A DNA stretch of 64,000 nucleotides. It comes from an uncultured Candidatus Saccharibacteria bacterium (lineage in GTDB: Bacteria; Patescibacteriota; Minisyncoccia; Minisyncoccales; Staskawiczbacteraceae). Location: positions 142-64,141 of the forward strand of contig CAZAAH010000003.1 of the NCBI GenBank assembly GCA_964483475.1, in the 5' to 3' direction. This document shows, piece by piece, positions 2,304 through 56,233 of the stretch (position 1 is the first letter of the stretch; the number at the start of each line of letters is the position of its first letter). A program made the translations under genes and the position numbers. Below the pieces are notes generated by a model. It was not told the origin of the DNA, made no database searches, and saw only the letters and a list, made by a program, of their open reading frames with translations.

Positions 2304-2436
2304 GAACTTAAGAACATATGAACTGAAGAACTATCTGGTCCTTTCGTTCTTTCGTTTTTTGGTTCTTTCGTTAAACTAATTCTGCAGCTCGACCGTTCTG
2401 CAACTAAATTATAGTATACTTTTTTAAAACATTTTG

Positions 2437-2661
2437 TCAACTGTCAAAAAAAATTGGGGCGGCCAGATTTGCATCCAGCCACGCCCCTTGCCCCAAATCT
2501 GCTCTCGGTTTCCGTTTTTGGCTACCGGGTACCTCTCGCCCGGTACCGAGCGTACAAGACGGTCTCGAGTACCGCCTTTTCCCTCCCTTGAAGGAATTCG
2601 CCCGTTGGGTCCCTACGCAGACCCTAACCGCCAACACCCTCCGACGGAAACGACGTGCCAT
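2437..2661 (-). CDS. hypothetical very basic 74-aa protein (Arg/Lys-rich) in GC-rich island
   Basis: ATG preceded by a perfect SD (AAAAAGGAGAAAGC-ATG). Arg-richness may be partly a GC artefact, hence low confidence. Confidence 0.3.
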   Translation of the reverse strand: MARRFRRRVLAVRVCVGTQRANSFKGGKRRYSRPSCTLGTGREVPGSQKRKPRADLGQGAWLDANLAAPIFFDS

Positions 2662-2712
2662 GCTTTCTCCTTTTTGTTGCGAGAATTGGTGGTCATGGCG
2701 AACCGCCAATCT

Positions 2713-2835
2713 CTAACCTGAAGGCGCGCTCCGCGCGCACCCTTTATCCCTCAGAAACCACTGGACGAACATCAGCGCTACCGCCGCGGCGACGGTCAAT
2801 AGCGCACAAGCAATGGGTCTCCAAAGCCTTTGCAT
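2713..2835 (-). CDS. hypothetical 40-aa hydrophobic/TM peptide
   Basis: Own translation: MQRLWRPIACALLTVAAAVALMFVQWFLRDKGCARSAPSG. SD AAAGGAG 6 nt upstream. Not in the ORF track because it is under 60 aa. Confidence 0.45.
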   Translation of the reverse strand: MQRLWRPIACALLTVAAAVALMFVQWFLRDKGCARSAPSG

Positions 2836-2881
2836 CTTACTCCTTTCAATCCTGGCTTGGGTCAAGGAATTCACATCGAAT

Positions 2882-2997
2882 CCCTTCTTTCAAATCATTA
2901 TACTATGAATTTATATTTTTCAATATTGAGTTTCAGTAAAATTCTGTGAATTAATTCTGAAATCGGTAAAATCTCACGTAATGATCTGAAAGAAAGG
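2882..2997. repeat. island inverted repeat D (116 bp, ends CCCTTCTTTCA...TGAAAGAAAGG)
   Basis: Read directly. Long imperfect hairpin with the conserved terminal 11-mers shared with the repeats at 3853, 4651 and 5263. Confidence 0.6.
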
Positions 2998-3104
2998 CCT
3001 ATGTTCTTTTGACGAATCCTGATTTCGTCCTTTTGGGCCCATCGGTTCCGACACACATCGGAATATCAGAAGGTGTTTAGGCAAGAACACCGAACCAGAA
3101 AACG

Positions 3105-3365
3105 CTAACGGTTGAAGAGAACACAAAATGCAATCTGGGGAAGATCCCACTCTTCCACCATTGCCCGGACCTTGACGACATCTGGTGCCTTGAGAAAACT
3201 CAAGGCAATTTCGGCTCCCAACTCGCTGGGGACGCGCTCCGCCCCTTCCTCGAGCATGAAGTTCCTCGCGAGAAAGGGATCATCAGAATACTTGTGGAGC
3301 ACTCGACCCAGGTCCAGCAAATACTCCGCCGGAGAAACGCTTTCTACTGTAAAAAGTAAAAGCAT
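3105..3365 (-). CDS. hypothetical protein (86 aa) in island
   Basis: Start MLLLFTVESVSP... preceded by a G-rich SD (TGGGGGGACC-ATG). No recognisable domain. Confidence 0.35.
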   Translation of the reverse strand: MLLLFTVESVSPAEYLLDLGRVLHKYSDDPFLARNFMLEEGAERVPSELGAEIALSFLKAPDVVKVRAMVEEWDLPQIAFCVLFNR

Positions 3366-3535
3366 GGTCCCCCCAGTAAAAAAAGTGCTACCCCTAACTT
3401 CAGCCCACAACCTACAAGGTTATGAACTAGAGAAAAGGGAGGAACTTGAGCGTTGCTCAGGGTATCCTCCGTGTACTCTTTGAGAGAAATTTGAAATAGG
3501 TATTCTCCCTTAACCTATTAATCTCAAAAAAGAGG

Positions 3536-3808
3536 TTATTGACTTTGTTGCCTCTTCTTGATCTCTTCTAACCTTTGTCTTATTTTGATCTCTTCCAAGC
3601 CATTCAGACAATCCTCCTCGATGGTTTTCAGTAATTTTTCTCTTCTTTTATCCATATCGTCCCTACCAACCAATAGTAGCATTTCGAGAAAATTATATTT
3701 TTCGTTGTAACCCCGGTAATAACCAAGGTTCAGGCCGACGATGAATGCCACTAATGCAACCACTACCAGCAACAATCCAGTGTAGAAAGTGCTCACGGAA
3801 ATCTCCAT
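3536..3808 (-). CDS. hypothetical small membrane protein (N-terminal TM helix plus charged coiled-coil tail)
   Basis: Hydrophobic stretch LLLVVVALVAFIVGL followed by an EEIKIRQRLEEIKKRQ coiled coil. Confidence 0.45.
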   Translation of the reverse strand: MEISVSTFYTGLLLVVVALVAFIVGLNLGYYRGYNEKYNFLEMLLLVGRDDMDKRREKLLKTIEEDCLNGLEEIKIRQRLEEIKKRQQSQ

Positions 3809-3822
3809 TTGAGATCGAAAGT

Positions 3823-3899
3823 TCTGCGCCCAACCTGGCGGAAGCCAGATTTAAGACGCATACCCTTCTTTCAAACCATGAATTTAATTCATGAACTGA
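3823..3899. repeat. conserved 30-nt block plus island inverted repeat B (47 bp)
   Basis: TCTGCGCCCAACCTGGCGGAAGCCAGATTTAAGACGCATA abutting CCCTTCTTTCA...TGAAAGTAAGGGG. The 40-mer is near-identical to 5223-5262. Confidence 0.6.
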
Positions 3900-3980
3900 A
3901 AGTAAGGGGTGAAAGATTTCACATCCTGTGAAATCTTTCACCCATGTTTTGCTGCGTCATCGTGACGCAACCTCATTTTA

Positions 3981-4541
3981 TTACGGTAGCTCTGTGAGCC
4001 GAAGCTCTTTCTTGAGCTCCTCAGCAGTAGTATCATACCACTGCTGATTCCGCATAACCGCCCAACTGGTACCGTCCGTGGCACATTCAGTCGGTACGGT
4101 CGCGCAGCCGTATCCTAGTGCCTCATCCCGACTGCACGGAAAGTACAATTTGAACTTCCTTTCCCCATACGACTTTTGGGTCGCCTGGGAATAGGTGGGT
4201 ACCGGACGCCCATACCACCTAATCTCATGGTGGTACTCCACTCGCAGAGCCGTCCGTGGCCGGTTTAGATACTCGGCCAACGACCCACCGAACTTAATCG
4301 GCGGCTGGACTTCCAGAATCAGACGCTGAAGTTTTCTCAACGCCGTCCGGAGACCCTTCGGCCCCCGACAGGTCATGGACCCGCACATTGTGGGAAGACG
4401 GAGCGAAAAAACTTTTTTTCCATTCTCCTCCCCCACGAGGATCTCCGCTGGACGTTGCCAGCCCAGATCCGGCCGCTCCAACTGGGCGACCAGCCGTGCC
4501 TCGATCCGGTTACCACTTTCCGTCGTAAAAAAAGTACTCAT
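3981..4541 (-). CDS. hypothetical protein (186 aa), GC-rich, no recognised family
   Basis: Strong SD (GCAAAGGAGAAAC-ATG). Codon usage and GC differ from the flanking core genes. Confidence 0.55.
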   Translation of the reverse strand: MSTFFTTESGNRIEARLVAQLERPDLGWQRPAEILVGEENGKKVFSLRLPTMCGSMTCRGPKGLRTALRKLQRLILEVQPPIKFGGSLAEYLNRPRTALRVEYHHEIRWYGRPVPTYSQATQKSYGERKFKLYFPCSRDEALGYGCATVPTECATDGTSWAVMRNQQWYDTTAEELKKELRLTELP

Positions 4542-4650
4542 GGTTTCTCCTTTGCGAGAATGCGATCTACACCCTTATGTGCCATGACGCACATAAGCGG
4601 TTTTGGAAATGTTCAACCTCGTGCACAAGTAGATATTACGCTTGAGGCTT

Positions 4651-4742
4651 CCCTTCTTTCAAACCACCATCGTTCAGTTTTAACCTATCCCTTATTCGAG
4701 CGAATTAGAGATGTGTTTTCCTTGATGATTTGAAAGAAAGGG
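4651..4742. repeat. island inverted repeat C (92 bp)
   Basis: CCCTTCTTTCAAACC...TGATTTGAAAGAAAGG. Followed by the conserved junction GAGGAATTGGAACATCGCTGTTCC...TCCTCCGTGACTCTTCGG, which is also seen degenerate at 3425-3480. Confidence 0.6.
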
Positions 4743-4907
4743 AGGAATTGGAACATCGCTGTTCCGGTCTCCTCCGTGACTCTTCGGCTCGCTCAGGGCG
4801 AGCCCTTGACTTGCCGTTCCTGGCAAGCCCTACGAAATCCCGTCCTTTGGTAAGGCAGTCCGGGCATCTGCCCACACCTGTACTGACTGGCCCAGGGCGA
4901 GGCTTTT

Positions 4908-5192
4908 TCAACCGACCACAAACCCTCCTTCGCGAGGGGGGTTCGCGTGTGGCGCCGCCACACGATAAGCGCCTCCGCCCCGCCTTCCGAACGACCCAGA
5001 GTAAATCTCTGGGATAATACCTGCATCGACGAGTGCCTCGTCTGCTGTTTCGAATGTTTTTTCACCTTTGAAGCGAAACCGGAACGGACCGGGCTCTGAT
5101 GGGAAATGCCTCTTCCCGTCAGAATCGAGCCACTGATAACCGGCATGCTTCCCAGCGAGAAAAACGACGGACCCCGTCAGCAATGTAAACAT
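4908..5192 (-). CDS. hypothetical small secreted protein (94 aa, N-terminal signal-like MFTLLTGSVVFLAGKHAG)
   Basis: Start chosen at the internal ATG with SD GAAAGGGGAATAAG-ATG. The track ORF 4908..5234 begins upstream inside the repeat. Confidence 0.5.
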   Translation of the reverse strand: MFTLLTGSVVFLAGKHAGYQWLDSDGKRHFPSEPGPFRFRFKGEKTFETADEALVDAGIIPEIYSGSFGRRGGGAYRVAAPHANPPREGGFVVG

Positions 5193-5222
5193 CTTATTCC
5201 CCTTTCGAGAGAATAGTGAAGT

Positions 5223-5337
5223 CTCTGCGCCCAACCTGGCGAAAGCCAGATTTAAGACGCATACCCTTCTTTCAGCTAGCCAACCGTGGCAAGTAGCCAG
5301 GCTCCCAGATAGGACTTACTGACGAGCTGAAAGAAAG
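5223..5337. repeat. conserved 40-nt block plus island inverted repeat A (75 bp)
   Basis: TCTGCGCCCAACCTGGCGAAAGCCAGATTTAAGACGCATA followed by CCCTTCTTTCAGCTAGCC...GAGCTGAAAGAAAGG. Confidence 0.6.
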
Positions 5338-5456
5338 GTAGGAAACCAAGATTCAATCATCCTTTTGGTCGTGTTTCCTTAGGTTTTTCAATGTTCATTT
5401 TACGCCTTAATTATAGCACTATCAAGCAAGTGTGTCAAGTGTTTAGGTAATCAATC

Positions 5457-5483
5457 AAAAAACGCCGATAATCGGCGTTTTTT
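5457..5483 (-). terminator. rho-independent terminator downstream of rpsP
   Basis: AAAAAACGCCGATAATCGGCGTTTTTT hairpin plus T-tract immediately 3' of the rpsP stop. Confidence 0.65.
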
Positions 5484-5495
5484 GGTACATTGTTT

Positions 5496-7463: not shown

Positions 7464-7516
7464 GCTTTTGGAATTATGATTTAAGAATTATGAATTAAGA
7501 TTATGAAGATATCCTA

Positions 7517-8173
7517 TCAAATAAATTCAGTTTTGGCAAGAGCTTTGACCGGGAAAAAAGACTTGCGGTGAATCTTGCAGGGGCCAAATGCATTGAGGTT
7601 TTTTAGGTGCAGTTTTGTGCCGTAGCCCTTGTGAAAATTAAAGCCGTACTCTGGATATTTTTTGTGAAGCTTTTGCATTACTCTGTCTCTTGTGACTTTG
7701 GCAATAATTCCGGCGGCTGTGCAAGAAAAAACCTTTTCATCAGCTGCAATAATCGGTTTTTGTGGAATTTTGGCCTTAATTTTAAAATTTCCGTCTAAAA
7801 TTAGAAATTCTGGCACAGAATTTAAATTTTTAACGGCTTTTTTCATCGCCAACTTCGTGGCTTCTAAAATATTTATTGTGTCTATAATTTTTTCTGAAAC
7901 CATTCCAATACCCCAATCAATTTGTGGATGATTTGTTAGTTTATTATAAAAAAAATCCCTTTGCTTTTGAGATAATTTTTTACTGTCTTTTATCCCAAAA
8001 AACATTTTAATATTAGCGCTAATATTAAAATGTTTTTTGGTTTCGGTTTTAATCATAACAGCTGCGGCCACCACTGGGCCGGCCAGTGGCCCCCTTCCAG
8101 CCTCATCTAGCCCAACAACAAAATTAAATCCTTGCTTCCACAATTTTTTTTCTTCATTGAGATTTGGGTACAT
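7517..8173 (-). CDS. rnhB: ribonuclease HII
   Basis: GLDEAGRGPLAGPVVAAAV motif. Confidence 0.9.
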   Translation of the reverse strand: MYPNLNEEKKLWKQGFNFVVGLDEAGRGPLAGPVVAAAVMIKTETKKHFNISANIKMFFGIKDSKKLSQKQRDFFYNKLTNHPQIDWGIGMVSEKIIDTINILEATKLAMKKAVKNLNSVPEFLILDGNFKIKAKIPQKPIIAADEKVFSCTAAGIIAKVTRDRVMQKLHKKYPEYGFNFHKGYGTKLHLKNLNAFGPCKIHRKSFFPVKALAKTEFI

Positions 8174-14598: not shown

Positions 14599-14847
14599 TT
14601 ATTTGAACGCCAATAAATCTTTAAGCTCCTTTACTTCCGCTTCCAATCTTTCAATCCTCACCTTGTGGTCAGCTAATATTAATTTTTCTATCTTATCAAA
14701 ACGCTTATCCACCAAATCAAAACGTTTATTCATTTCTGACTTGGTGGCCATTCTTTCGGTCACATCATTAAATCCGTTCTGGACCATAACCGCCAAGTCA
14801 TCAATGGTAACATCTTTTTTGCTCATAGGTTCATTATACTGTTTCAA
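14599..14847 (-). CDS. small coiled-coil protein (paralog of 33461..33700)
   Basis: Shared pattern I(T)IDxLAxMVQxGF...K..R...E.KL..I with the 79-aa ORF at 33461..33700. Confidence 0.5.
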   Translation of the reverse strand: MKQYNEPMSKKDVTIDDLAVMVQNGFNDVTERMATKSEMNKRFDLVDKRFDKIEKLILADHKVRIERLEAEVKELKDLLAFK

Positions 14848-14861
14848 CCAACCGTGTCAAT

Positions 14862-15410
14862 TTAGGTATACCGATCAGCCACCACTGAAGCCGCAAAGGA
14901 CATGGGCTTTATCCTCGGCTCAAAACCATTGGCTCTGATCAACCCCGTCACCTCTTTTATCATTTCCTTGGTTTTGCCCTGCTCCCCGACGTCAGCATGA
15001 ATATACTGAAACTGGTAATTAAAATCCGGCCTTGAGCCCCCAAAATCTTTTTCCAACGTTTCCCTCAAGGACAGTGCCAATTCGCACGACAAATACACTT
15101 CTTGCAAAATTCTCTGCTTCCAATTAATGTGCATAAATTTTTTCAAGTAAGCATCGGGATAGTGCATTTTTTTCAAAAAAAACCGGCCGCCGGCGCCCGA
15201 TCTCAAAACAACAATGGCAATTGGGAAAAAGGGCTTATCTGACGAAGGCGAGTCGCATCCCACCACAATATCATAAAAAAAGGCAGGGGCGGAAGCAATG
15301 TAACGGTAAATTTCTTGGATAACTTCCTTAAACTCCAGCTCTCCGCGGCTTGGATTAAAAAATGATCCGTTTTGTATTTCGTGATTCATATTGCCTGATA
15401 ATACTACCAA
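14862..15410 (-). CDS. hypothetical protein, possibly DUF458/YkuK-like RNase H-fold
   Basis: DIVVGCDSP...PIAIVVL resembles the YkuK core. Weak. Confidence 0.35.
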   Translation of the reverse strand: MVVLSGNMNHEIQNGSFFNPSRGELEFKEVIQEIYRYIASAPAFFYDIVVGCDSPSSDKPFFPIAIVVLRSGAGGRFFLKKMHYPDAYLKKFMHINWKQRILQEVYLSCELALSLRETLEKDFGGSRPDFNYQFQYIHADVGEQGKTKEMIKEVTGLIRANGFEPRIKPMSFAASVVADRYT

Positions 15411-15491
15411 AAAATCTGCTTGTCAAAGTATAATAAAAAAAGCACGGTCGATTATTCAACAGTGCTTCAACAGCTAAACTCACTAAAAGAA

Positions 15492-16213
15492 CTATCTTTG
15501 GCCGGTCAGTTCGGCCCAGTGGTGCTTTGGCTTGAGCCGCTGCGACCCAGCCTTGCAAAGCGGACAATCCTCTGGCTTCCACTTTTGAATATCGCAGTGG
15601 ACCAGGTACACAATCTTCTGGCCTTCAATTTCGTAAACGTCAGAACGGTGGACCAAAACTACTGGCGTCGCAAAGTTAATTGGATAATCAGGATGGGCAT
15701 CCCGAATCCCCTTGCGCACCGCTAAGAGTGTTGACGCGGTTGTCATCAGCTCTTCTGCCTGCAAGACAACTTCGTCTGGCCCAATGGTGAATCTTTTCCA
15801 CAGCTGAGACTTTCGGGGCCCTTTTCCGTGAAGTCATGCTGAGCACCCATGGCAATGGCAACGCTGTGGGAAAAATCGGCTCCGGCGTGATCTGAACCAA
15901 CCACCCAGTCAACTCTTTTGTTTTGTTCACGCCACTCACAAAGCTCTTCGTATTTATAAGAGGCCAACTCTCCAAAAATCTGGCAGAGGTTTGAGTACCG
16001 CAAAGCCCTCAACGTATCGACAAACCCGTTGCTGCAGTCTCCAGCCGTGAGCTCGGCATGGGGATCTTTGGGATCGCCAGAGTGCAGCCACAGGGCGTCG
16101 CATAGTTTAAGGACGTGGGTTATCTCTTTCTCGCCAAATTTAATGAAAGCGGTGTCCCGGGCTTTTAACCTTCTCAACTCATCCACGCTTTTCATTTCCA
16201 GAATTTTGGTCAT
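15492..16213 (-). pseudogene. pyrE: orotate phosphoribosyltransferase (pyrE), interrupted by a frameshift near 15760-15800
   Basis: The 155-aa ORF (GIP-like GSDHAGADFSHSVAIAMG) and the overlapping 90-aa ORF carry the PRTase motif in a different frame (DEVVLQAEELMTTASTLLA, type-I PRPP loop). GC-rich. Confidence 0.5.
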
Positions 16214-16214
16214 G

Positions 16215-16916
16215 TCAGGCTCCCTTCCGGTATTGGTTCATGAGGTTGTGAAGTTGCAACGCTTTCTCCCGCGGGTCATCAGCAAAGATGACGTCCCGGG
16301 AAGAGTTGATGATCAACCCCTTGCCTCGGCTGTCCATTCCAGCTTTCATCGTAGCCTCAAGGTCTCCGCCTTGGGCTCCGATGCCCGGCGCCAAAATCGG
16401 CAAATTGCCAATGATTTGGCGGATCCTGCTCAATTCAGTTGGATGGGTTGCCCCAGCCACAACCGCGCAGTTTCCGTATCGGTTCCATTCCTTGGCGACC
16501 CTTGTGGCAACATATTGGTAGAGACTCAACGAAATGCTTTCGTCAATGACAATGTCCTGAAGCTCGCCGGCTCCCGGGTTGGAGGTTCTAACAAGCACAA
16601 AAATTCCCTTGTCCTTGCGTTCAAGGAACGGCTTGAGCGCCTCGCCACCCAGATAAGGACTTACTGTGATGGCGTCGGCCTTCAGCCAATCAAAGGCCAT
16701 TTCGGCCGTGCCATTGTTGGTGTTCCCGATGTCTCCGGCTTTCCTATCAAGAATCACCGGAACATCTGGCGCAGCTTCGTGAATGTAACGCATAGTGTGT
16801 CGGAGGGCCGCTAATCCTTCGTCTCCATACTCCTCGTAGAAGGCAAAGTTTGGCTTGTAGGCGCAAACTAAATCCTTGGTTGCCTCAACAATCGTACAAT
16901 TAAAATTGTACATCAT
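16215..16916 (-). CDS. pyrF: orotidine-5'-phosphate decarboxylase (type 2), apparently N-terminally short
   Basis: ILDRKAGDIGNT (DxKxGDIG), SPYLGGEALKP, FVLVRTSNPG. The upstream in-frame stop leaves no room for the usual N-terminal 25-30 aa. GC-rich. Confidence 0.7.
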   Translation of the reverse strand: MMYNFNCTIVEATKDLVCAYKPNFAFYEEYGDEGLAALRHTMRYIHEAAPDVPVILDRKAGDIGNTNNGTAEMAFDWLKADAITVSPYLGGEALKPFLERKDKGIFVLVRTSNPGAGELQDIVIDESISLSLYQYVATRVAKEWNRYGNCAVVAGATHPTELSRIRQIIGNLPILAPGIGAQGGDLEATMKAGMDSRGKGLIINSSRDVIFADDPREKALQLHNLMNQYRKGA

Positions 16917-17136
16917 GTACTCTGCGGACGTGCCAGTACCGATGAATCTTTTTGGAATTTTTGCTCAATCGCTATCCAGCCCAACACATAAAAACTTTCC
17001 TTCATCCCACTTTTTCCCAATCATTTCCATGAAATTTCGCTCAGCCATTACACACGCTCCCTTCTGGTAAAACTCTGTTCAATTGACAAGGATCTCTCCA
17101 CAACAACGATTACTCAACTTACCAAAAAAACTCTTA

Positions 17137-17186
17137 GAAATCAACTTTCTTATTGTAAAAAGAAATCAACTTTCTTATTGTAAAAA
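17137..17186. repeat. tandem 25-bp direct repeat x2 (AGAAATCAACTTTCTTATTGTAAAA)
   Basis: Read directly, in the pyrF upstream region. Confidence 0.6.
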
Positions 17187-17230
17187 ATAGTTAATCATAC
17201 TCATCCCACTCTATTGCTACCTTATTACAC

Positions 17231-17262
17231 CCACTGGACAATTCGGACGAATTGTCCAGTGG
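17231..17262. promoter_or_regulatory. palindromic operator-like site CCACTGGACAATTCG-GAC-GAATTGTCCAGTGG
   Basis: Perfect 14-bp inverted repeat. Near-identical second copy at 17600-17627, on the other side of the ArsR-family gene. Confidence 0.55.
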
Positions 17263-17276
17263 TTTCGCAAAAAAAT

Positions 17277-17543
17277 TTAGATGAAAATTTTTAGTACTTT
17301 TTTAAAATCTTCCGGAATATCTTTGCTCAAACTATAATGCACAAAACCGTCTTTCCCTTCAGATTCTAAAATATCCAAGTTTTGCATTATAATTAAATGT
17401 CTTGATGTGGCCTTCAAAGAAATCTTCAGTTCTTCTGAAATTTTAGTAACCGTCATACTTTTACCGTTAAATAATATTCTTATTATTTTAATCCGGTTAA
17501 TATTTCCTAAAGTTTTAAAAATAGTAATCCAACGTTTATCCAT
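17277..17543 (-). CDS. ArsR/SmtB-family HTH transcriptional regulator
   Basis: Winged HTH MTVTKISEELKISLKATSRHLIIMQNLDIL. 88 aa. Confidence 0.7.
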   Translation of the reverse strand: MDKRWITIFKTLGNINRIKIIRILFNGKSMTVTKISEELKISLKATSRHLIIMQNLDILESEGKDGFVHYSLSKDIPEDFKKVLKIFI

Positions 17544-17599
17544 AATTTTATAAAATTTTTAAAAATAATTTACTAAACAATCCCCCCCCTCTCCCCACC

Positions 17600-17627
17600 A
17601 CTGGACAATTCGCGCGAATTGTCCGGT
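17600..17627. promoter_or_regulatory. second palindromic operator-like site ACTGGACAATTCGCGCGAATTGTCCGGT, preceded by a poly-C tract
   Basis: Read directly, upstream of the ArsR-family gene. Confidence 0.55.
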
Positions 17628-17684
17628 AGGTTAAAATGAAAACAAGTAAAATATTTTTGTTTTCTATTTTAACTTTTTACAATT

Positions 17685-18461
17685 TTAAATTAACTTTATT
17701 TCTTCGACTATCTTTATGAATTCGTCGGAGTCTAGAGAGGCTCCGCCCACGAGCAACCCATTGATGCTTTCCTCTCGCAAATACGAGCTGGCATTTTTTG
17801 AGTTAACGCTGCCCCCGTAAAGAATTTTTACCTTTTTGGCCGCGTCTTGGTTGTAGAGCTTGGACACTATGCTCCTAATGAGCACCACCGACCTCAAGGC
17901 CTCGTCTACTGAACAGTTTTTGCCATTTCCAATGGCCCAGACAGGCTCGTAAGCGATGATTAAATTTGAAATTTTTGAAACTCCCTTTAATCCTTCTTCA
18001 ATTTGCTTTGTTAAAATTAAATTTTTATCTTCTCCTTCCTTTTCACCAACACAAAAAATCGGCTTGAAGCCTGCATCCAAAGTAGCTTTGACTTTTTTGT
18101 TTATCATGTCATCGGTCTCGCCAAGCTCGCGCCGTTCAGAATGGCCAACTATTGCATATTTTACATTGAGGTCTTTTAGCATGAGCGGTGAAATTTCCCC
18201 GGTATAAGCTCCTTTCTCTTTATAAAAAACATTTTGTCCTCCTACGCCAAGGCTTCGGACGGACAGGCGCGCCAAGATTGGAATATATACGAATGGAGGG
18301 CAAATTATAACTTCTGCATTTTTTATTTTTGAAACCGATTTTTTAACAGATTCAAAAAGCCTCTTTGCCCCTTCTTGTGTATTTGGATTAAGTTTCCAAT
18401 TAGCTACTATTAATTTTTTCACCCCCACACCAAACGAGTTTATTATTTCAAGATTTTTCAA
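17685..18461 (-). CDS. tpiA: triosephosphate isomerase
   Basis: ANWKLN, GHSERR, GGASL motifs. Confidence 0.9.
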   Translation of the reverse strand: MKNLEIINSFGVGVKKLIVANWKLNPNTQEGAKRLFESVKKSVSKIKNAEVIICPPFVYIPILARLSVRSLGVGGQNVFYKEKGAYTGEISPLMLKDLNVKYAIVGHSERRELGETDDMINKKVKATLDAGFKPIFCVGEKEGEDKNLILTKQIEEGLKGVSKISNLIIAYEPVWAIGNGKNCSVDEALRSVVLIRSIVSKLYNQDAAKKVKILYGGSVNSKNASSYLREESINGLLVGGASLDSDEFIKIVEEIKLI

Positions 18462-19110: not shown

Positions 19111-19857
19111 CTAGGTACTTGTCAACACTTTTGCGCCGTCTTCGGTGATTGCAATTGTGTATTCAAAGTGAGCGGTAAGGCTGCCGTCCTTGGTGGCAAA
19201 GCCGTAACCATCGGCTGCCTTTTTCAAATGGTAGTCCCCCATCGTCACCATCGGCTCAATGCAAATGACCATCCCCTCTTTTAATTCAACCCCTTTGTGG
19301 CGCTGGCCGTAGTTTGGAATTTTGGGATCTTCATGGACTTCTTTGCCAATTCCATGGCCGCACAAATCCCTGACCACCTGGTAGCCCTGGCTTTCCACAT
19401 ATCGTTGGATGGTGTTGCCAATGTCGCCCGTCGTATTCCCCGGCCTGGCTTTTTTTATGCCGATTTTCAAAGATTTTTCGGTAACTTTCAGCAGCCTCTT
19501 TGCCTCAAAAGAAATGTTTCCAACCCCGACGGTCACGGCCATGTCAGTGTTGTAGCCCTGGTAAAAAACTCCCAAGTCCAAGCCCACCACATCCCCCTCT
19601 TTGAGCTTATAATCTGACGGGAAGCCATGGACGATCACCTCATTGACCGAAGCGCACAGGGAGTAAGGAAAATTTTCGTAGCCCTTGAAGGCCGGCTTTG
19701 CCCCATGTTTTAAAATAAGGGCCTCGGCGGCCCTGTCCAATTCCAAAGTGGTGATGCCGGGCTTTACCATTTTTTCTATCTGTCCCAAAACTTTTGCCAG
19801 GATTTTCCCGCCTTCAGCCATTATGCTTATTTCCTCCTTTGTTTTTATGCTTATCAT
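19111..19857 (-). CDS. map: methionine aminopeptidase type I
   Basis: MAP fold with metal ligands in DVVGLDLG, HGIG and EPM context. Confidence 0.9.
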   Translation of the reverse strand: MISIKTKEEISIMAEGGKILAKVLGQIEKMVKPGITTLELDRAAEALILKHGAKPAFKGYENFPYSLCASVNEVIVHGFPSDYKLKEGDVVGLDLGVFYQGYNTDMAVTVGVGNISFEAKRLLKVTEKSLKIGIKKARPGNTTGDIGNTIQRYVESQGYQVVRDLCGHGIGKEVHEDPKIPNYGQRHKGVELKEGMVICIEPMVTMGDYHLKKAADGYGFATKDGSLTAHFEYTIAITEDGAKVLTST

Positions 19858-21018: not shown

Positions 21019-22296
21019 TTAAAATGTATCGTACTCCCTCATTTCAAGCTGTGAGTTGACTTGGCGCATGGTTTCCAAAACCACGCTGACAATAATCAAA
21101 AGAGAAGTGCCTCCGATTAAAAAGGTAAATCCAGTAACCCCCGTCAGCCCCCCGACAACCGAAGGTAAAACGGCAATCAGTCCCAAAAATATGGCACCCG
21201 TAAACAAGACTCTGTTTAAAATGTGTTTTAAAAATTCGGCGGTTGAGTTTCCGGGCCTGACTCCTGGGATAAATCCCCCCATTTTCTGCAAATTTTCGGC
21301 GATGGTTTTTGGGTCAAAGGTGACCGCGGTATAAAAATAAGTAAAAAGAATTACTAAAATAAAATATAATGCTCCATTAACCCAAACATCGCTAAAAAAA
21401 CCGTTAACATTATTTGCTATGTTTCCAACGATTCCTGCGAATCCCGTAAAAAATCTGGCCACCATGCCCGGCAGTAAAAGTATTGAAAGGGCAAAAATGA
21501 TTGGAATAACTCCGGCTGGATTGATATTGAGCGGCAGGTAGGTTGAAACTCCCCCGTACATTTTGTTCCCCCTGACTCTCTTTGAATAGGAAACCGGAAT
21601 ATTTCTGCGGGCCTCGGTTATTAAAACAACAGCTCCAATGATTGCCACTGAAAGGACGAAGAACACTAGGTATGATGGGATTTTTGAAGGGTCCCAGCTC
21701 ACAAAGGTTTGAAAAATATTGACGGGCAAGCGGGCAACAATTCCGGCAAAAATCAAAAGGGAAATGCCGTTGCCCATCCCCTGCTCGGTAATAATTTCGC
21801 CCAGCCACATCAAAAACATTGCTCCCGTCACGATGGTCACAATGGAGGCCAACATGGTCGTCCACGACAAAGGGCCAATCACTCCCTGCCGCTGAAAGAG
21901 GGTCAGCATCCCATAGCCCTCAAAGGCTGCCAGGGGGATGGTCAAAAGCCGGCCGTACTGGTTGAACTTTTGCCTACCCGCTTCTCCTTCCTCTTTGTAC
22001 ATTTTTTCCAACTGGGGGAAAATCATGGTCAGCAGCTGCAGGATAATGGTGGCGGTAATATAAGGGCCGAGGCCGAGCAAAACAATGGAAAAATTGCTCA
22101 GGGCTCCGCCAGAAAATATGTTTAAAAATCCAAAAACCTGGTTTTGGGCAAAGAATTTCCTTAAATTTTCAGAGCCGATGCCAGGAATAGGAATGTTAGC
22201 GGCCAACCTAAAAACCACAAACAAAATGATAACAAAAATAATTTTGTTTCTTAACTCTTTGTCTTTAAATAAAAATATAATTCTGTCGTACCACAC
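21019..22296 (-). CDS. secY: preprotein translocase SecY
   Basis: 10-TM profile with GIGNGISLLIFAGIV motif. Confidence 0.9.
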   Translation of the reverse strand: MWYDRIIFLFKDKELRNKIIFVIILFVVFRLAANIPIPGIGSENLRKFFAQNQVFGFLNIFSGGALSNFSIVLLGLGPYITATIILQLLTMIFPQLEKMYKEEGEAGRQKFNQYGRLLTIPLAAFEGYGMLTLFQRQGVIGPLSWTTMLASIVTIVTGAMFLMWLGEIITEQGMGNGISLLIFAGIVARLPVNIFQTFVSWDPSKIPSYLVFFVLSVAIIGAVVLITEARRNIPVSYSKRVRGNKMYGGVSTYLPLNINPAGVIPIIFALSILLLPGMVARFFTGFAGIVGNIANNVNGFFSDVWVNGALYFILVILFTYFYTAVTFDPKTIAENLQKMGGFIPGVRPGNSTAEFLKHILNRVLFTGAIFLGLIAVLPSVVGGLTGVTGFTFLIGGTSLLIIVSVVLETMRQVNSQLEMREYDTF

Positions 22297-34099: not shown

Positions 34100-36175
34100 C
34101 TATTTGCGTTTTCCCTCTACAATTTCCATTTCAACGTTCTTGGGAACTGGTTCGTAGCGGTTAAATTCCATCGTAAACGAGGCCCTACCCTCAGTGAGCG
34201 AGCGCAACCCCGTGGCATAGCCAAACATTTCTGATAATGGAACAGAGGCGTCTATCACTTTCATTCCAACCCTCTCTTTTGTTTCTTCAATTTTGCCACG
34301 ACGAGAGCTCAAATCAGAAATAACCTGGCCAAAAAAGTCCGGTGGAACAATCACCTCCGTTTTCATAATCGGTTCCAAAATCGCCACTTTGGCTCTCTTG
34401 GCGGCATCCTGCAAAGCCATTGATCCGGCAATCTTAAAAGCAAATTCAGAAGAGTCAACTTCGTGGAAACTGCCGTCATACAATGTAACTTCAACGTCAA
34501 CCAGCGGATATCCGGCCAAAATTCCCTTGTCCATGGCTTCGACAATTCCTTTTTCGGTGGGCTTGATGAATTCTTTAGGGATGACTCCGCCCTTGATTTC
34601 GTCAATAAATTCAAAGCCAGATCCCCTTTCCTTGGGTTTCACCCGAATCAAAACGTGCCCATACTGTCCTCGGCCGCCCGACTGCCTGATATACTTTCCT
34701 TCGGCCTCGGCCTCGCCCATAATGGTTTCTTTATAAGCAACCTGAGGCCGGCCGAAATTAGCATCAACCTTAAACTCCCGCTTTAATCGGTCAGCAATAA
34801 TTTCCAAATGCAATTCCCCCATGCCAGAAATAATCGTCTCGCCCGTTTCCAAATCTTCTTTGATTTTAAAAGTTGGGTCTTCCTCGGTCAGCTTCCTGAT
34901 GGACATAATCAGTTTTTCCTGGTCAGCCTTGGTTTTTGGCTCAACCCGCATGGAAATGACCGGTTCAGGGAAAGTAATTTTTTCCAAAATAATGGGCTTG
35001 TCTTTATCACACAGGGTGTGGCCGGTGCTCGTGGCTTTCAATCCAACAGTTCCACCAATTTCGCCAGCGTGCAATACATCCATTTCCTGCCGTGAGTCAG
35101 CATGCATCCTCAAAATCCTGGCAATTCTTTCCTGCTCTCCCGTGTTGGCATTCAAAACATAACTTCCCTTGTTCAAAACGCCAGAGTAAATCCTAAAGTA
35201 GGTCAGGGTGCCCACGTAGGGGTCGGCGGCAATTTTAAACACCAGGGCCGAAAACGGCTCCTCATCCGACGCCTTCCTCTCAACTTCTGATCCCGTTTTT
35301 GGGTCGGTTCCCTTGACTGGCGGCAAATCAACGGGCGAAGGCAGGTAATCAACCACCGCATCCAAAATAATCTGGGTGCCTTTGTTTTTTAGGGCCGATC
35401 CGCAAAAGACCGGCACCAATTTAAAAGCCAAAACGGCCTTTCTTAAAGTCGCCATCAGTTCTTCCTTTGAAATTTCCTTACCTTCCAAATGTTTTTCCAG
35501 CAAGACTTCATCCTCGGCCGCAATTTTATCAACCATGATTTTGTTCCACTCTTCGGCTTTTGCCTTAAACTCATCGGGGATTTCTTTTTCAACAACGGTC
35601 TCCCCTTTGTCTCCCTCAAAGTAAATTGCCTTCATTTTCATCAGGTCAATAATGGCCGAAAGATGCTCTTCTTCTCCAATGGGGATGTTCATTGCCACGG
35701 CGTTTGGGGTTAATTTATCCAAAATTGATTGAAAACTTTTTTCAAAGGAAGCGCCCATTCTGTCTAACTTATTGATAAAGCAAACTCTTGGAGTGCCGTA
35801 TTTATCGGCCTGCCTCCAGACGGTTTCCGATTGGGGCTCAACGCCGGCAACCCCGTCAAAAACCACCACCGCCCCGTCCAAAACCCTCAAGGATCGCTGG
35901 ACTTCGGCCGTAAAATCAATGTGGCCTGGGGTATCAATGAGGTTCATCTGGCAGCCTTTCCAATACATGGTCGTGGCGGCCGCCGTAATGGTAATTCCTC
36001 TTTCTCTTTCCTGCACCATCCAATCCATGACCGTATCCCCCTCGTGCACTTCACCGATTTTATGGGAAACTCCCGTGTAAAATAAAAGCCGCTCGGAGAC
36101 CGTTGTCTTCCCAGCATCAATATGAGCAATAATTCCGATGTTTCTAATTTTATCTAAAGGATATTGTCTTGGCAT
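34100..36175 (-). CDS. fusA: elongation factor G
   Basis: [17 protein letters not shown], five-domain length. Confidence 0.95.
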
Positions 36176-38889: not shown

Positions 38890-39594
38890 TTAATGTCTAA
38901 TTGGTATCTTTATAAAAAATTTACTTCCCTGGTTTTCTTTTGATTCAAACCAAATTTTCCCTTTATGATCCTCCACAATACTTTTGGCGATAAAAAGGCC
39001 TAATCCAGAACCTACTGTTTGCGTTTTTACGGCGTTATCTCCCCTAAAGAACTGGCTAAATAAATTTTTCTTTTGATTTTCTGGAATTCCTATGCCCGAA
39101 TCCTCAACCTTAACCTCCAGATTTTTTTTATCAACCCTAAGAGAAACATTTACCCTTCCACCGTCTGGGGTGTATTTAATGGCGTTGTCTATAATATTCT
39201 GAATTGCTAAATAAATTTTTTCCTTATCCAGCATCACTTTTGGTATTTCCTGGTTGGATTTTACAAAATCAATTTGAATTTTTTTATTTATAATGTCTCC
39301 TTTTTCAAAGTTTATAATGGATTCTATTAAACCTTCAACATCAACCAGTGTTAAATTAATATCTTTTTGGTTTTTTTGATTTTGGGCCATGTGAAGCAAA
39401 TCATCAACCAAACAAATTAATGCCTCGTCTCTTTGCAATATTTTTTCAATAATGTCTTTTTGCTCTTTTGAAATTTGGCCAAAATCCCCTTCCAAAAGCA
39501 TTTGCAATGATAACTTCATGGTGGAAAGCGGTTTTTTTAGCTGGTGAGCCGCCAACGAAAAAAAACTGATTTTTTCTTCCTTGTTTAATTTCAT
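38890..39594 (-). CDS. sensor histidine kinase (cytoplasmic HisKA plus HATPase_c)
   Basis: H-box AAHQLKKPLSTM, then N, G1 and G2 boxes (DSGIGI, GSGLGL). Confidence 0.8.
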   Translation of the reverse strand: MKLNKEEKISFFSLAAHQLKKPLSTMKLSLQMLLEGDFGQISKEQKDIIEKILQRDEALICLVDDLLHMAQNQKNQKDINLTLVDVEGLIESIINFEKGDIINKKIQIDFVKSNQEIPKVMLDKEKIYLAIQNIIDNAIKYTPDGGRVNVSLRVDKKNLEVKVEDSGIGIPENQKKNLFSQFFRGDNAVKTQTVGSGLGLFIAKSIVEDHKGKIWFESKENQGSKFFIKIPIRH

Positions 39595-41219
39595 ATTTCA
39601 AATTTTTTCTTAATGATACCGTTTTTCTGGGCATCGATAATTGAAGACGTGTGAATCAACGAATAAGACCCGTCACTGTTTTTCTTTTCTATTTTAACAT
39701 AATACTTTCCTCTTGGGACCAAGCAATAATATCTTCCGTATTTGTCGGCAATCTTATGGCTGATTTCCACATGAGAAGTTGCTCCAACAATTCTTATAAC
39801 AGCGAAGGAAAGCGGAACACCGGTTGCTTTATCAAATACATAACCAGCCGGCCTTGGTTTCAGCCCCAAAGTCCTCAACAATAATAATACTAAGTATACT
39901 ATAACGATAATGGTATTGTAAGGATGGGGAGCCAAAAAGAAAGCTATTAGAGAAACAAGAAAACCAACAATGAAAGAAGCATCGTAAATCTTTCCCAACA
40001 AAAGATCCCAGCGGGAGTAAAACTTCATAAAAGTTTTATTTTTTTTGGCAAATTCATTCCAATCAAAATGAATAGGATCAAGGGGAATATTTTTAGCTAT
40101 AGTCTCTCCCCTTTCTTTAATTTCTATTTGTTCTCCAAAATAAAGGCTACCATAAAAACCGTCTTCTATTTTACCGCTAATTTTTTTTGAAGGGAATTCA
40201 TAATTTGTTTTTTTGGCTGAAATAAGGTAGGACCCGGGCGCCACCAAAAATCCATATCGGCCATCAATGTCCGTGATCGCCGAAGCAACCTCCTTGCCTC
40301 CCAAACTGCTCAACGTGACATACGCCGGATCCAAGGGTTGTTTGGTAACAGAGTCATACACGATTCCCCATGGCAAGTTTCTTTTTCTGATACCAAGAGC
40401 AGTCAATATACTGCCGAGCAATCTCGTTAAGCTTAGGGTTATGTCATAGAAAGAGGGTAGATAAGTAGCAACGCTTGAAGATGTTGCAATTACAGTAACC
40501 GTCGCTCCCACCGTTGATACTGTCTTAGTTGCTATTGCCCCTTGAGGAGTGTTAATTACTTTTTTTGTTTCTTCAATTGCTATACCAGCCAATTGAACCG
40601 AATTCGCCACGACTTCTGAAACACCGTTGCTCAAAATTTCAACAGCCTTGGTAACTATTTGATATGCATTGCCTCCGATTTCCCTAGTAATTCCTAAAAT
40701 ACCTTCATATCCTTGACTTACTATTTGAGAAAAATTACTGAACACCGTGGTTATTGGATTTGATGGTGGAGCTGGGGGCGGTGGTGGTGTCTCGGGTGGC
40801 GGAGGAGGTGGTATTGGCGGAGGAGGCGGTGGAATTTGAATAGCAGAAACTACAAATGGCAAGGAGCTTGATGTCCCCCCTCCAGGAGAAGGATTGGTTA
40901 CGCCAATAGAATATGTCCCTTCATTCTTAAAATCAAAAGAAGTAAGTGAAGCCGAAATCTGGGTTTTTGAAATAAAAGTTGTCCCTCTTGGCGAACCATT
41001 GAAATTTACCACAGAATCTGAAATAAAGTTGTCTCCCTTGACCGTCAACGACAATCCCTGATCTCCAACCGTGCCGCTTGACGGGGTTATCGCCGTGATG
41101 ACCGGCAAGGGATTGTAGACCGTGAAGGTAAAGCTGTTTGAGTCGCTCGACTGGGCCGAGGCTACTGTGGAAAAAAGACAGAAAAATAATGTGAGGAAAA
41201 TAAAAAATATTTTTTTCAT
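39591..41219 (-). CDS. surface protein: signal peptide, IPT/TIG-like domain, poly-Pro linker, C-terminal multi-TM region with carboxypeptidase-regulatory-like repeats
   Basis: Start set at MKKIFFIFLTLFFCLFSTVASA. IPPPPPPIPPPPPPETPPPPPAPP. Repeats GRYGFLVAPGSYLISAKK and GRYYCLVPRGKYYVKIEKK. Confidence 0.55.
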   Translation of the reverse strand: MKKIFFIFLTLFFCLFSTVASAQSSDSNSFTFTVYNPLPVITAITPSSGTVGDQGLSLTVKGDNFISDSVVNFNGSPRGTTFISKTQISASLTSFDFKNEGTYSIGVTNPSPGGGTSSSLPFVVSAIQIPPPPPPIPPPPPPETPPPPPAPPSNPITTVFSNFSQIVSQGYEGILGITREIGGNAYQIVTKAVEILSNGVSEVVANSVQLAGIAIEETKKVINTPQGAIATKTVSTVGATVTVIATSSSVATYLPSFYDITLSLTRLLGSILTALGIRKRNLPWGIVYDSVTKQPLDPAYVTLSSLGGKEVASAITDIDGRYGFLVAPGSYLISAKKTNYEFPSKKISGKIEDGFYGSLYFGEQIEIKERGETIAKNIPLDPIHFDWNEFAKKNKTFMKFYSRWDLLLGKIYDASFIVGFLVSLIAFFLAPHPYNTIIVIVYLVLLLLRTLGLKPRPAGYVFDKATGVPLSFAVIRIVGATSHVEISHKIADKYGRYYCLVPRGKYYVKIEKKNSDGSYSLIHTSSIIDAQKNGIIKKKFEI

Positions 41220-41247
41220 AGTTTCAGGCTTTGCTCTTTTTACCATA

Positions 41248-53503: not shown

Positions 53504-54883
<1,380 letters not shown>

Positions 54884-55165
54884 TTACTCTATTCCGAACT
54901 TTTTTCTTGCATTAGCATTTTCTTTTTCTATTTCTTCTTCTGACATTTTTATTCCATGTTCATTCCTAAACCTCTCCCTTCCTTTTTTAAACTTTTCATA
55001 TTGTTGCATCCTAATTTTTTTCATGGTATCTTCATACATTTTCTTTCTTTCTTCTTCCTGATCTTTAATTTTTTGTTCTGGTGTTTTTTGTTCTTTCTCA
55101 ACCTCTTGTTTCTTAATTTCTTGTTCTGGCTCTGGTTCTAATGGGTAAGATTCTTGTTTTGCCAT
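54884..55165 (-). CDS. hypothetical highly charged (K/E-rich) protein inserted between atpG and atpD
   Basis: ORF only. Low complexity. Confidence 0.35.
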   Translation of the reverse strand: MAKQESYPLEPEPEQEIKKQEVEKEQKTPEQKIKDQEEERKKMYEDTMKKIRMQQYEKFKKGRERFRNEHGIKMSEEEIEKENANARKKFGIE

Positions 55166-55198
55166 ATTATTTTTGTTTTAAGTTTTATGTTTCAAGTT

Positions 55199-56152: not shown

Positions 56153-56233
56153 TAATTGTGCTACGAAATACGAATTTTATACGAATATACCAAACCGTTT
56201 TTCGTATATTCGTATGTTTTTCGTATTTCGTAG

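Follow-up and report, generated by a model that had tools for sequence, protein, structure and literature searches.

Type-2 orotidine-5'-phosphate (OMP) decarboxylases, represented by TIGR02127 and PF00215, and the Thermus/Helicobacter-type orotate phosphoribosyltransferases (OPRTases), represented by TIGR01367 and PDB 4PAW (HP1257), are the described proteins closest to the products of two adjacent genes, pyrF and a pyrE-like gene, found in the 64,000-nt stretch of DNA analyzed here (the window; Table 1). Like the type-2 enzymes, the window PyrF gives a full-length match and keeps D25, K65 and the D101-x-K103-x-x-D106 motif, but its gene has a TGA at codon 28. The PyrE-like protein shares with the Thermus/Helicobacter type a PRPP loop, VLQ(A/V)EELMTT, a C-terminal CPLC motif, coupling to pyrF and the type I PRTase fold (Foldseek E=9e-13; TM of 0.78 relative to the target). 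It departs from this type by an N-terminal extension of ~50 residues, by a frameshift, by a score of 32.2 bits against TIGR01367 (pyrE_Therm), below the cut-off of 150.25, and by its placement in a Patescibacteria-wide subfamily whose members are mostly annotated as 'hypothetical'. With regard to gene decay, a parallel can be found in the nascent pseudogenes of reduced or symbiotic bacteria, where single inactivating lesions likewise strike adjacent genes of one pathway in otherwise intact coding sequence; here, however, the host genome is a densely coding one of the Patescibacteria type, and the genes that are hit belong to a lineage-specific insertion, not to the ancestral core.

The reading favored here is that a two-gene orotate-to-UMP module common in Patescibacteria, composed of a type-2 pyrF and, 1 nt on, a Thermus/Helicobacter-type pyrE-like OPRTase gene, was acquired laterally, inserted in this lineage between tpiA and an RNaseH-like gene, beside an ArsR-family regulator gene, and then recently inactivated by two single-nucleotide lesions that arose independently; this is considered probable, if far from assured. 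The locus resembles ordinary gene loss at an early stage rather than a new kind of system. Its main value lies in the correction of the annotation: the deposited 233-aa 'pyrF' and 155-aa fragment (P0001 and P0133) correspond to two genes of full length, each bearing a single lesion, and metabolic reconstructions should therefore not credit the genome with the conversion of orotate to UMP, unless reads overturn the lesions.

Table 1. Features of the region between tpiA and the RNaseH-like gene (positions in the window).
Feature	Position	Strand	Remarks
RNaseH-like gene (PF04308, DUF458-type)	14862-15389	-	Intact; native downstream flank; Pfam E=1.4e-35; syntenic in 4/4 relatives
Lineage-specific insertion	15390-17684	-	~2.3 kb; arsR, two palindromes, tandem repeat, pyrF and pyrE
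pyrE-like OPRTase gene	15492-16213	-	240 codons once repaired; split by 1-nt deletion
Premature TGA	15746-15748	-	Ends 155-aa N-terminal pyrE fragment, upstream of PRPP loop
Frameshift site	15811-15813	-	A-run short of one A (GAAAAG -> GAAAG); codons 134/135
Antisense ORF	16029-16814	+	261 aa; overlaps well-supported pyrF/pyrE coding sequence
pyrF (type-2 OMP decarboxylase)	16215-17048	-	277 codons, one in-frame stop
In-frame TGA, pyrF codon 28	16965-16967	-	From translation and sequence
Shine-Dalgarno-like site	17057-17064	-	GAAGGGAG; read from sequence; 8 nt upstream of pyrF ATG
Perfect tandem duplication	17136-17185		25-nt unit; pyrF upstream region
Palindrome copy 2	17229-17263		Perfect 15-2-15; between arsR stop and pyrF
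ArsR-family winged-helix regulator gene	17277-17543	-	88 aa, 27% GC; inside insertion
Palindrome copy 1	17597-17631		12-2-12 core CTGGACAATTCG-NN-CGAATTGTCC; upstream of arsR
tpiA	17685-18461	-	Native upstream flank; PF00121 precomputed for its own NCBI gene product and homologues

The pyrF Gene

Translated through its stop, pyrF scores 237.8 bits against TIGR02127 (pyrF_sub2; cut-off 110.6) over residues 9-263, and this 277-aa translation can be aligned with 27 homologues over its entire length; its 233-aa part matches PF00215 (E=3e-30). D25, K65, D101, K103 and D106 do not vary among the 28 aligned sequences, that of the window included, and D25, K65 and the D-x-K-x-x-D motif correspond to the catalytic Asp/Lys set established for OMP decarboxylases (Asp on strand 1, Lys on strand 2). 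The type-2 identity proposed in the initial annotation is confirmed by these matches and invariant residues, the identity to Patescibacteria PyrF being 55-63%. By contrast, the N-terminal truncation that had also been proposed does not hold, as the N-terminus is encoded from the ATG at 17046-17048, which opens MAERNFMEMIGKKWDEGKFLCVGLDSD and begins the 27 codons preceding the actual defect, a nonsense TGA at codon 28. The Shine-Dalgarno-like site before this ATG supports 17048 as the original start, and beyond the TGA the same frame runs on into the 233-aa ORF. Homologues display F, Y, L, I, M, H or W at the codon-28 column, and TGA is one step away from TGG (Trp) or TTA (Leu).

Since the TGA falls just past Asp25, which is conserved as part of the GLD motif, a product restarted at Met45/46 would lack this residue. 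The annotated 233-aa product (P0001) starts at Met45 and is without the first strand carrying Asp25; as encoded, the TGA leaves pyrF no uninterrupted frame for a complete (beta/alpha)8 barrel. Judged from its sequence, pyrF is a member of the type-2 OMP decarboxylases by descent and, as encoded, a pseudogene.

The pyrE-Like Gene

The pyrE-like gene begins 1 nt past the pyrF stop and is recovered, as had been described, in two ORFs of 155 aa (15746-16213) and 90 aa (15492-15764). When aligned with 20 intact homologues, the gene changes frame directly after codon 134 (GAA, 15812-15814). Frame 0 matches as far as ...HDFTEKGPE, and KSQLWKRF... follows in the other frame, the family consensus being TEKGP(D/E)K(T/S)QxWKRF; as the match to this consensus switches frame between GPE and KSQLWKRF, the lesion is the loss of one A from GAAAAG. 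The frameshift noticed earlier is real, but it lies at 15811-15813, ~11 nt outside the bracket of 15760-15800 first assigned to it. Restoring the A at this site yields a single ORF whose 240-aa protein fits the family, intact homologues having ~240 aa and up to 63% identity. Its loss at codons 134/135 would leave a 155-aa product without the C-terminal CPLC region and without the PRPP-binding loop, which is present in the gene as VVLQAEELMTT. The truncated PyrF and PyrE products are presumably both inactive.

Regarding the function of the intact protein, PF00156 gives no match at E<=1. The family profile matches PDB 4PAW, an OPRTase (E=4e-11), and with the AlphaFold model of the repaired PyrE (pLDDT 93.7) the top 23 PDB matches are all OPRTases. 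This likeness of fold, together with the conserved pyrF coupling of the pyrE-like gene (loci L082-L088 and L101), suggests that the protein may be specific for orotate.

Genomic Context and Base Composition

Useful relatives were reached via tpiA homologues, the nearest of which are 62-64% identical; synteny via AlaRS in GTDB genomes was uninformative, with best matches that were <=55% identical and taxonomically mixed. In the four related loci (L105, L106, L108, and L109), the gene order is adk-map-(slot)-TIM-RNaseH_like-(slot)-AlaRS-426 aa, and in all four of them the RNaseH-like gene comes immediately after tpiA, with a spacing of 4 to about 300 nt. The flanking genes of the window match those of these loci, and arsR, pyrF and pyrE intervene in the window only. 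With the junction bare in 4/4 relatives, the pair is a lineage-specific insertion, and the comparison supports the view that it is foreign to its present position. The region initially ascribed to pyrE and pyrF, which started at 14862, has to be shortened, since 14862-15389 is a separate, intact RNaseH-like gene (PF04308) and not pyrE. In the relative L105, a GC-rich nucleoside deoxyribosyltransferase gene is inserted one slot away. In this lineage the neighborhood of tpiA is a variable slot where nucleotide-salvage genes are gained and lost, which is unsurprising to specialists.

The segment is indeed GC-richer than its surroundings, with 51-54% over 15550-16900 against 30-36% in the immediate flanks (300-nt windows); the pyrF-pyrE pair has 51% GC and a GC3 of 0.58-0.59, and the intergenic DNA and arsR are AT-rich. 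The patch is not unique within the window, whose mean GC is 40%: 16% of the 300-nt windows reach at least 48% and about ten other patches are equally rich. In terms of GC3, pyrF (0.58) ranks alongside map (0.60), secY (0.50), the ATP synthase genes (0.51-0.55), and EF-G (0.52). Because the native map, secY and ATP synthase genes are GC-rich too, the GC richness that had been read as a sign of foreign origin lends weak support to it, and GC content as proof of horizontal transfer was downgraded, the native syntenic genes map and secY being just as rich at third positions. The long antisense ORF at 16029-16814 is without a Pfam match and, in agreement with its first description as an artifact, can be seen as a by-product of the GC-rich coding sequence on the opposite strand.

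Origin of the Pair

The nearest relatives of pyrF and of the pyrE-like gene (55-63% identity) belong, where named, to Patescibacteria (Vogel-, Moran-, Zambryski-, Jorgensen-, Uhr- and Gribaldobacteria) and occur as adjacent pyrF-pyrE pairs. Such pairs are common in Patescibacteria, against the earlier premise that these genes are exotic for CPR bacteria, a distribution that is again unsurprising to specialists. Literature searches on pyrE, pyrF and orotate in CPR bacteria and on the sequencing run SRR8931233 gave no relevant match, and a metagenome scan with PyrF returned no relative above 64% identity and neither a donor nor a sister allele. The genomic context of the intact homologous pairs varies from locus to locus, and in L086-L088 the pair stands about 15 GC points above its flanks, which suggests mobility. 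The operon might instead be native and vertically inherited, lost in the four relatives and decaying here without any lateral transfer. This would agree with the nearest pyrF/pyrE homologues (63%) being no closer than those of the native tpiA (62-64%), with other native window genes being equally GC-rich and with the wide occurrence of the pair in Patescibacteria; the uninterrupted TIM-RNaseH_like junction common to all four relatives, the differing context of intact pairs and the GC contrast in L086-L088 speak against it and make it quite improbable. What stands of the horizontal acquisition proposed at the outset is the foreign position, the pair being missing at this junction in 4/4 relatives, and not the argument from GC.

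Nature of the Lesions

The two lesions and the insertion are directly visible in the data. Nonetheless, one or both lesions could be a consensus or sequencing error, or a minority defective allele taken up by the assembler, in an organism possessing a working pyrF-pyrE operon, which is judged unlikely but deserving of serious consideration. Each gene carries exactly one single-nucleotide lesion, the deletion lies inside a short homopolymer, conservation of both proteins is normal outside the lesions (the repaired PyrE folding well in the model), and the source is a metagenome-assembled contig. Yet exactly this deletion is also present in a Logan assembly made independently from run SRR8931233, with contig L001 being 100% identical to 14805-16550. 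As this run is probably also that of the MAG, the match excludes an assembler artifact, but not a read-level or minority-allele effect, and it does not extend to the TGA: the two Logan contigs recovered cover 14805-16550 and 17239-18362 only, and the TGA falls in the stretch between them, 16551-17238. Moreover, an A4 run is short for an Illumina-type indel, a stop-creating substitution is an atypical consensus error, and two random errors would fall in one 1.56-kb operon of a 64-kb window with a chance of ~2.4%, none of the ~45 other ORFs inspected for Pfam coverage or synteny being broken. PyrE deviates at 3/87 conserved columns, the family median, and PyrF at 10/129, at the top of the range and tied with an intact homologue. 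The degeneration claimed for the pair comes down to one single-nucleotide lesion in each gene, conserved positions being otherwise kept at normal rates. The near-absence of further decay fits an error as well as a very recent inactivation.

Bypass of the lesions by recoding, with Trp inserted at UGA and ribosomes slipping by -1 on the A-run to give a low full-length output, appears extremely improbable. UGA is known to be the leakiest stop codon, a homologue has Trp at the codon-28 column of PyrF, and an X XXY YYZ-like A AAG GGC is found 9 nt upstream of the pyrE junction; however, all 27 PyrF and 40 PyrE homologues compared are uninterrupted (0/67), TGA acts as a normal stop in the rest of the window, and no structured element was detected at the junction by Rfam. 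In addition, slippage on A AAG GGC would turn the conserved GP(D/E)K into GPRK, whereas one restored A fits perfectly. On this evidence programmed recoding is unsupported. A change of genetic code with TGA as a sense codon was likewise rejected, as TGA ends 12 of the 65 long minus-strand ORFs and splits no other gene. Under the favored reading of lateral acquisition followed by two lesions, the inactivation would be recent, because both frames are otherwise normally conserved.

The ArsR-Family Gene and Upstream Elements

ArsR/SmtB repressors have been described with 12-2-12 inverted-repeat operators (PMC8790569). The window resembles this arrangement in that an HTH_5 gene (PF01022, 35.5 bits against a cut-off of 22) is accompanied by two 12-2-12 palindromes, upstream of itself and of the neighboring operon, which from their architecture are putative operators; it differs in that the protein has 88 aa only and that the second palindrome is ~180 nt from the pyrF start. 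The hairpins have predicted energies of -21.5 kcal/mol (copy 1) and -26.3 kcal/mol (copy 2, z = -6.5), with no T-tail following copy 2 on the coding strand, and the two sites are the only ones in 64 kb, where 0 are expected by chance. To our knowledge, the ArsR/SmtB family has no link with pyrimidines. The gene is missing from all 109 fetched loci, bar a copy of the window region itself, and no ArsR homologue is found near pyrF in the other loci.

It can be speculated that the GC-rich pyrF-pyrE pair is a mobile orotate-salvage cassette among Patescibacteria devoid of the rest of the pyrimidine pathway, caught soon after its capture beside a dedicated repressor of the ArsR type and its two 12-2-12 operators, and already being lost. 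The gene inserted in L105 offers a parallel, and such a cassette would provide a snapshot of the turnover by which ultra-small bacteria gain and lose nucleotide-salvage genes; we nevertheless regard this reading as doubtful.

At gathering as well as permissive thresholds, Rfam gave no match to a leader, a riboswitch or any other RNA within the locus or close to it. A 17-nt likeness between the pyrF and pyrE upstream sequences was discarded, as ~0.45 such pairs would arise by chance and the Shine-Dalgarno sequence accounts for 8 of the 17 nt. A promoter-like TTGACA-17-TATTAT is located at 15398-15426, by the RNaseH-like gene.

Lesions in pyrF and pyrE

The genes around pyrF-pyrE all lie on the minus strand, in the 5' to 3' order tpiA, arsR, pyrF, pyrE-like, RNaseH-like gene, 82-aa ORF and alaS. 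While the initial annotation described pyrF as truncated at its N-terminus, with an ORF of 233 aa, the first codons are encoded upstream in the same frame and the lesion is a nonsense codon. The upstream translation reads MAERNFMEMIGKKWDEGKFLCVGLDSD-TGA-AKIPKRF and runs on into the 233-aa ORF, the start ATG having GAAGGGAG 8 nt upstream. The read-through translation (277 residues) aligns end to end with 27 homologues (58-63% identity), in which the column of the TGA, a codon a single step from TGG or TTA, is occupied by F, Y, L, I, M, H or W. It reaches 237.8 bits against TIGR02127 pyrF_sub2 (cut-off 110.6), keeps all of the invariant residues D25, K65, D101, K103 and D106, and departs from the family at 10 of 129 conserved columns, a high value but one equalled by an intact homologue. 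Since D25 is encoded upstream of the stop, a protein restarted at Met45 would lack this residue together with the first barrel strand and, from the established structure of OMP decarboxylases, would be inactive.

The split of pyrE into ORFs of 155 and 90 aa was correctly recognized as two frames of one gene. Alignment with 20 intact homologues (about 240 aa each) shows that frame 0 tracks the family as far as AQHDFTEKGPE and the other frame from KSQLWKRFTIGPDEVVLQAEELMTT on. The DNA at the junction is GGC CCC GAA AGT CTC, and with one A added (GAA AAG TCT) it encodes GPEKSQLW, which agrees fully with the consensus GP(D/E)K(T/S)Q-W, so the lesion reads as an A4 run shortened by one A. The repaired 240-aa protein deviates at 3 of 87 columns (at least 90% conserved), which is the family median, and is modeled by AlphaFold2 with a pLDDT of 93.7 and a pTM of 0.90. 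Its top structural match in the PDB is 4PAW (HP1257), also found by sequence with the PyrE family profile (E=4e-11), and ranks 1-23 are all orotate phosphoribosyltransferases (OPRTases). Because it falls below the curated TIGR01367 cut-off (32 vs 150 bits) and its sequence has no Pfam phosphoribosyltransferase (PRTase) match, it is classed here as a pyrE-like OPRTase belonging to a divergent subfamily in Patescibacteria; given the predicted fold and the constant coupling to pyrF, it would probably be specific for orotate.

Positions of features in the window (strand and Pfam match where assigned)
Feature	Position	Strand	Pfam
tpiA	17685-18461	-	
ArsR-family gene, 88 aa	17277-17543	-	HTH_5
pyrF start ATG	17046-17048	-	
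pyrF nonsense TGA	16965-16967	-	
pyrF ORF of the initial annotation	16215-16916	-	
pyrE A4 run with lost A	15811-15813	-	
RNaseH-like gene	14862-15389	-	PF04308
ORF, 82 aa	between RNaseH-like gene and alaS	-	
alaS, short form, 578 aa	12788-14524	-	
Palindromes	17229-17263; 17597-17631		
25-nt tandem duplication	17136-17185		
17 nt before pyrF ATG	17053-17069		
17 nt before pyrE ATG	16216-16232		
map (GC3-high)	19111-19857		
secY (GC3-high)	21019-22296		
EF-G gene (GC3-high)	34100-36175		
ATP synthase genes (GC3-high)	53504-57754		
GC-rich stretch	2304-5495		
186-aa ORF in GC-rich stretch	3981-4541		
560-aa ORF	39591-41273		
1421-aa ORF	41248-45513		

Origin of the pair

The pair is foreign to its position, as had been proposed. 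Four loci (L105, L106, L108 and L109) chosen via the nearest tpiA relatives (62-64% identity) are all arranged as adk-map-(variable small gene)-TIM-RNaseH_like-(variable small gene)-AlaRS, with an AlaRS of about 577-593 aa (incomplete in L105 and L109, where the contig stops) followed, in the two loci reaching that far (L106 and L108), by a 426-aa GlxA/Baseplate_J-like gene. The window keeps this gene set and order around tpiA and the RNaseH-like gene, but these are separated by 2.3 kb holding arsR, pyrF and pyrE, as against 4 to about 300 nt and none of the three genes in all four relatives. Parsimoniously, arsR-pyrF-pyrE was inserted in the lineage of the window. No donor can be identified. 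The closest pyrF and pyrE identities (63%) equal those of the native tpiA.

The GC-rich segment itself is clear (51-54% GC across 15550-16900 vs 30-36% on both sides, in 300-nt windows), with a GC3 of 0.58-0.59 for pyrF and pyrE. Composition nevertheless adds less to the case for a foreign origin than was thought, because map (0.60), secY (0.50), EF-G (0.52) and the ATP synthase genes (0.51-0.55) reach similar GC3 values and about 16% of the 300-nt windows in the 64 kb have at least 48% GC. Contrary to the initial premise, the pair need not come from outside the group either. Since the named sources of the nearest PyrF and PyrE-like proteins are Patescibacteria (Vogel-, Moran-, Zambryski-, Jorgensen-, Uhr- and Gribaldobacteria, 'Parcubacteria/Paceibacterota') and the adjacency recurs, pyrF-pyrE is a recurrent Patescibacteria module, not exotic in such genomes. 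A PRTase gene (about 250 aa) directly follows pyrF in the seven loci fetched for intact type-2 PyrF homologues (L082-L084, L086-L088, L101), and one follows a shorter 241-aa OMPdecase gene in L085, fetched via the PyrE-like homologue P0123.

The closest pyrF relative (L086-L088) is also richer in GC than its flanks, by about 15 points. In L105, the variable slot between map and TIM holds a GC-rich nucleoside 2-deoxyribosyltransferase gene (7491-7937; GC3 0.61 vs about 0.25 in its neighbours), a parallel case of GC-rich nucleotide-salvage insertion in the same neighbourhood. Taken together, these two cases suggest that the tpiA neighbourhood exchanges nucleotide-salvage genes.

Real lesions, errors or recoding

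The likeliest account, and one held with some confidence, is that an orotate-to-UMP module was inserted laterally and then recently inactivated by two independent point lesions. Real lesions are favoured because the Logan assembly of run SRR8931233, made independently, has the identical pyrE deletion (contig L001, 100% identical to 14805-16550), TGA is an ordinary stop in the window (ending 12 of 65 long ORFs) and splits no other gene, the roughly 45 other ORFs checked through domain coverage or synteny are all unbroken, and the chance of two random errors falling in the same 1.56-kb operon is about 2.4%. These observations weigh against an artefact (consensus or sequencing) or a minority allele, which is the less probable explanation but a serious one: each gene carries a single lesion with essentially no further decay, the pyrE deletion falls in a homopolymer, and the pyrF TGA lies within 16551-17238, outside the recovered Logan contigs L001 and L104. 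The Logan assembly breaks at 16550, within pyrF, and at 17239, within a palindrome, where L104 (17239-18362) begins; strain variation or low coverage in the TGA-bearing stretch could account for the break within pyrF.

That a native operon is decaying without any transfer would fit the identity level shared with tpiA, but is improbable considering the uninterrupted TIM-RNaseH_like arrangement of the four relatives. Programmed recoding of both lesions is hardly credible and finds no support, as all 67 homologues have an unbroken frame, the product of a -1 slip at the one heptamer-like string present would read GPRK rather than the conserved GP(D/E)K, and no RNA element was detected. Gene gain followed by inactivation is a well-known kind of event; the practical gain here is the corrected anatomy of the locus, and the genome should not be scored as capable of converting orotate to UMP unless reads confirm it.

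Putative regulatory elements

Two palindromes of about 35 nt bracket arsR, one upstream of arsR and the other upstream of pyrF, with a 12-2-12 core (CTGGACAATTCG-NN-CGAATTGTCC). No further site occurs in the 64 kb, and chance predicts none; both are without a T-tail, and the palindrome is absent from all fetched loci. Their sequence architecture matches the 12-2-12 one described for ArsR/SmtB operators (PMC8790569), and ArsR might regulate pyrF-pyrE. In the pyrF upstream region, a 25-nt unit (AGAAATCAACTTTCTTATTGTAAAA, + strand) also occurs twice in perfect tandem, 88-137 nt ahead of the start codon. The 17 nt preceding the pyrF and pyrE ATGs are 88% identical (TACC[A/G]GAAGGGAGC[G/C]TG); chance would give about 0.45 such pairs, and the Shine-Dalgarno sequence makes up 8 of the 17 nt. 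In frame, the copy upstream of pyrF translates as YQKGA, similar to the YRKGA at the PyrF C-terminus.

Other observations in the window

GC3 is strongly mosaic across the window, some core genes reaching 0.50-0.60 and ribosomal-protein genes 0.26-0.39; their syntenic counterparts in L105 and L106 are uniformly at 0.17-0.33. Allelic replacement from GC-richer relatives is one possible cause. Between a KH-domain gene and rpsP, at the expected place of rimM, a 3.2-kb GC-rich stretch (45-55%) without any Pfam or Rfam match includes a 186-aa ORF (GC3 0.63) along with several ORFs that overlap in different frames, and may represent a further insertion or decayed genes. The closest GTDB relatives of the short AlaRS share at most 55% identity with it and are variously labelled as Patescibacteria, DPANN archaea or other taxa; this mixture suggests a short AlaRS type that moves laterally. 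Finally, an ORF of 1421 aa, overlapping the start of a 560-aa CarboxypepD_reg-domain ORF, shows a positive GC skew and an unusual excess of GC2 (0.58) over GC1 (0.39); its sole match is a weak SpaA_4, and its product is probably a large surface protein.
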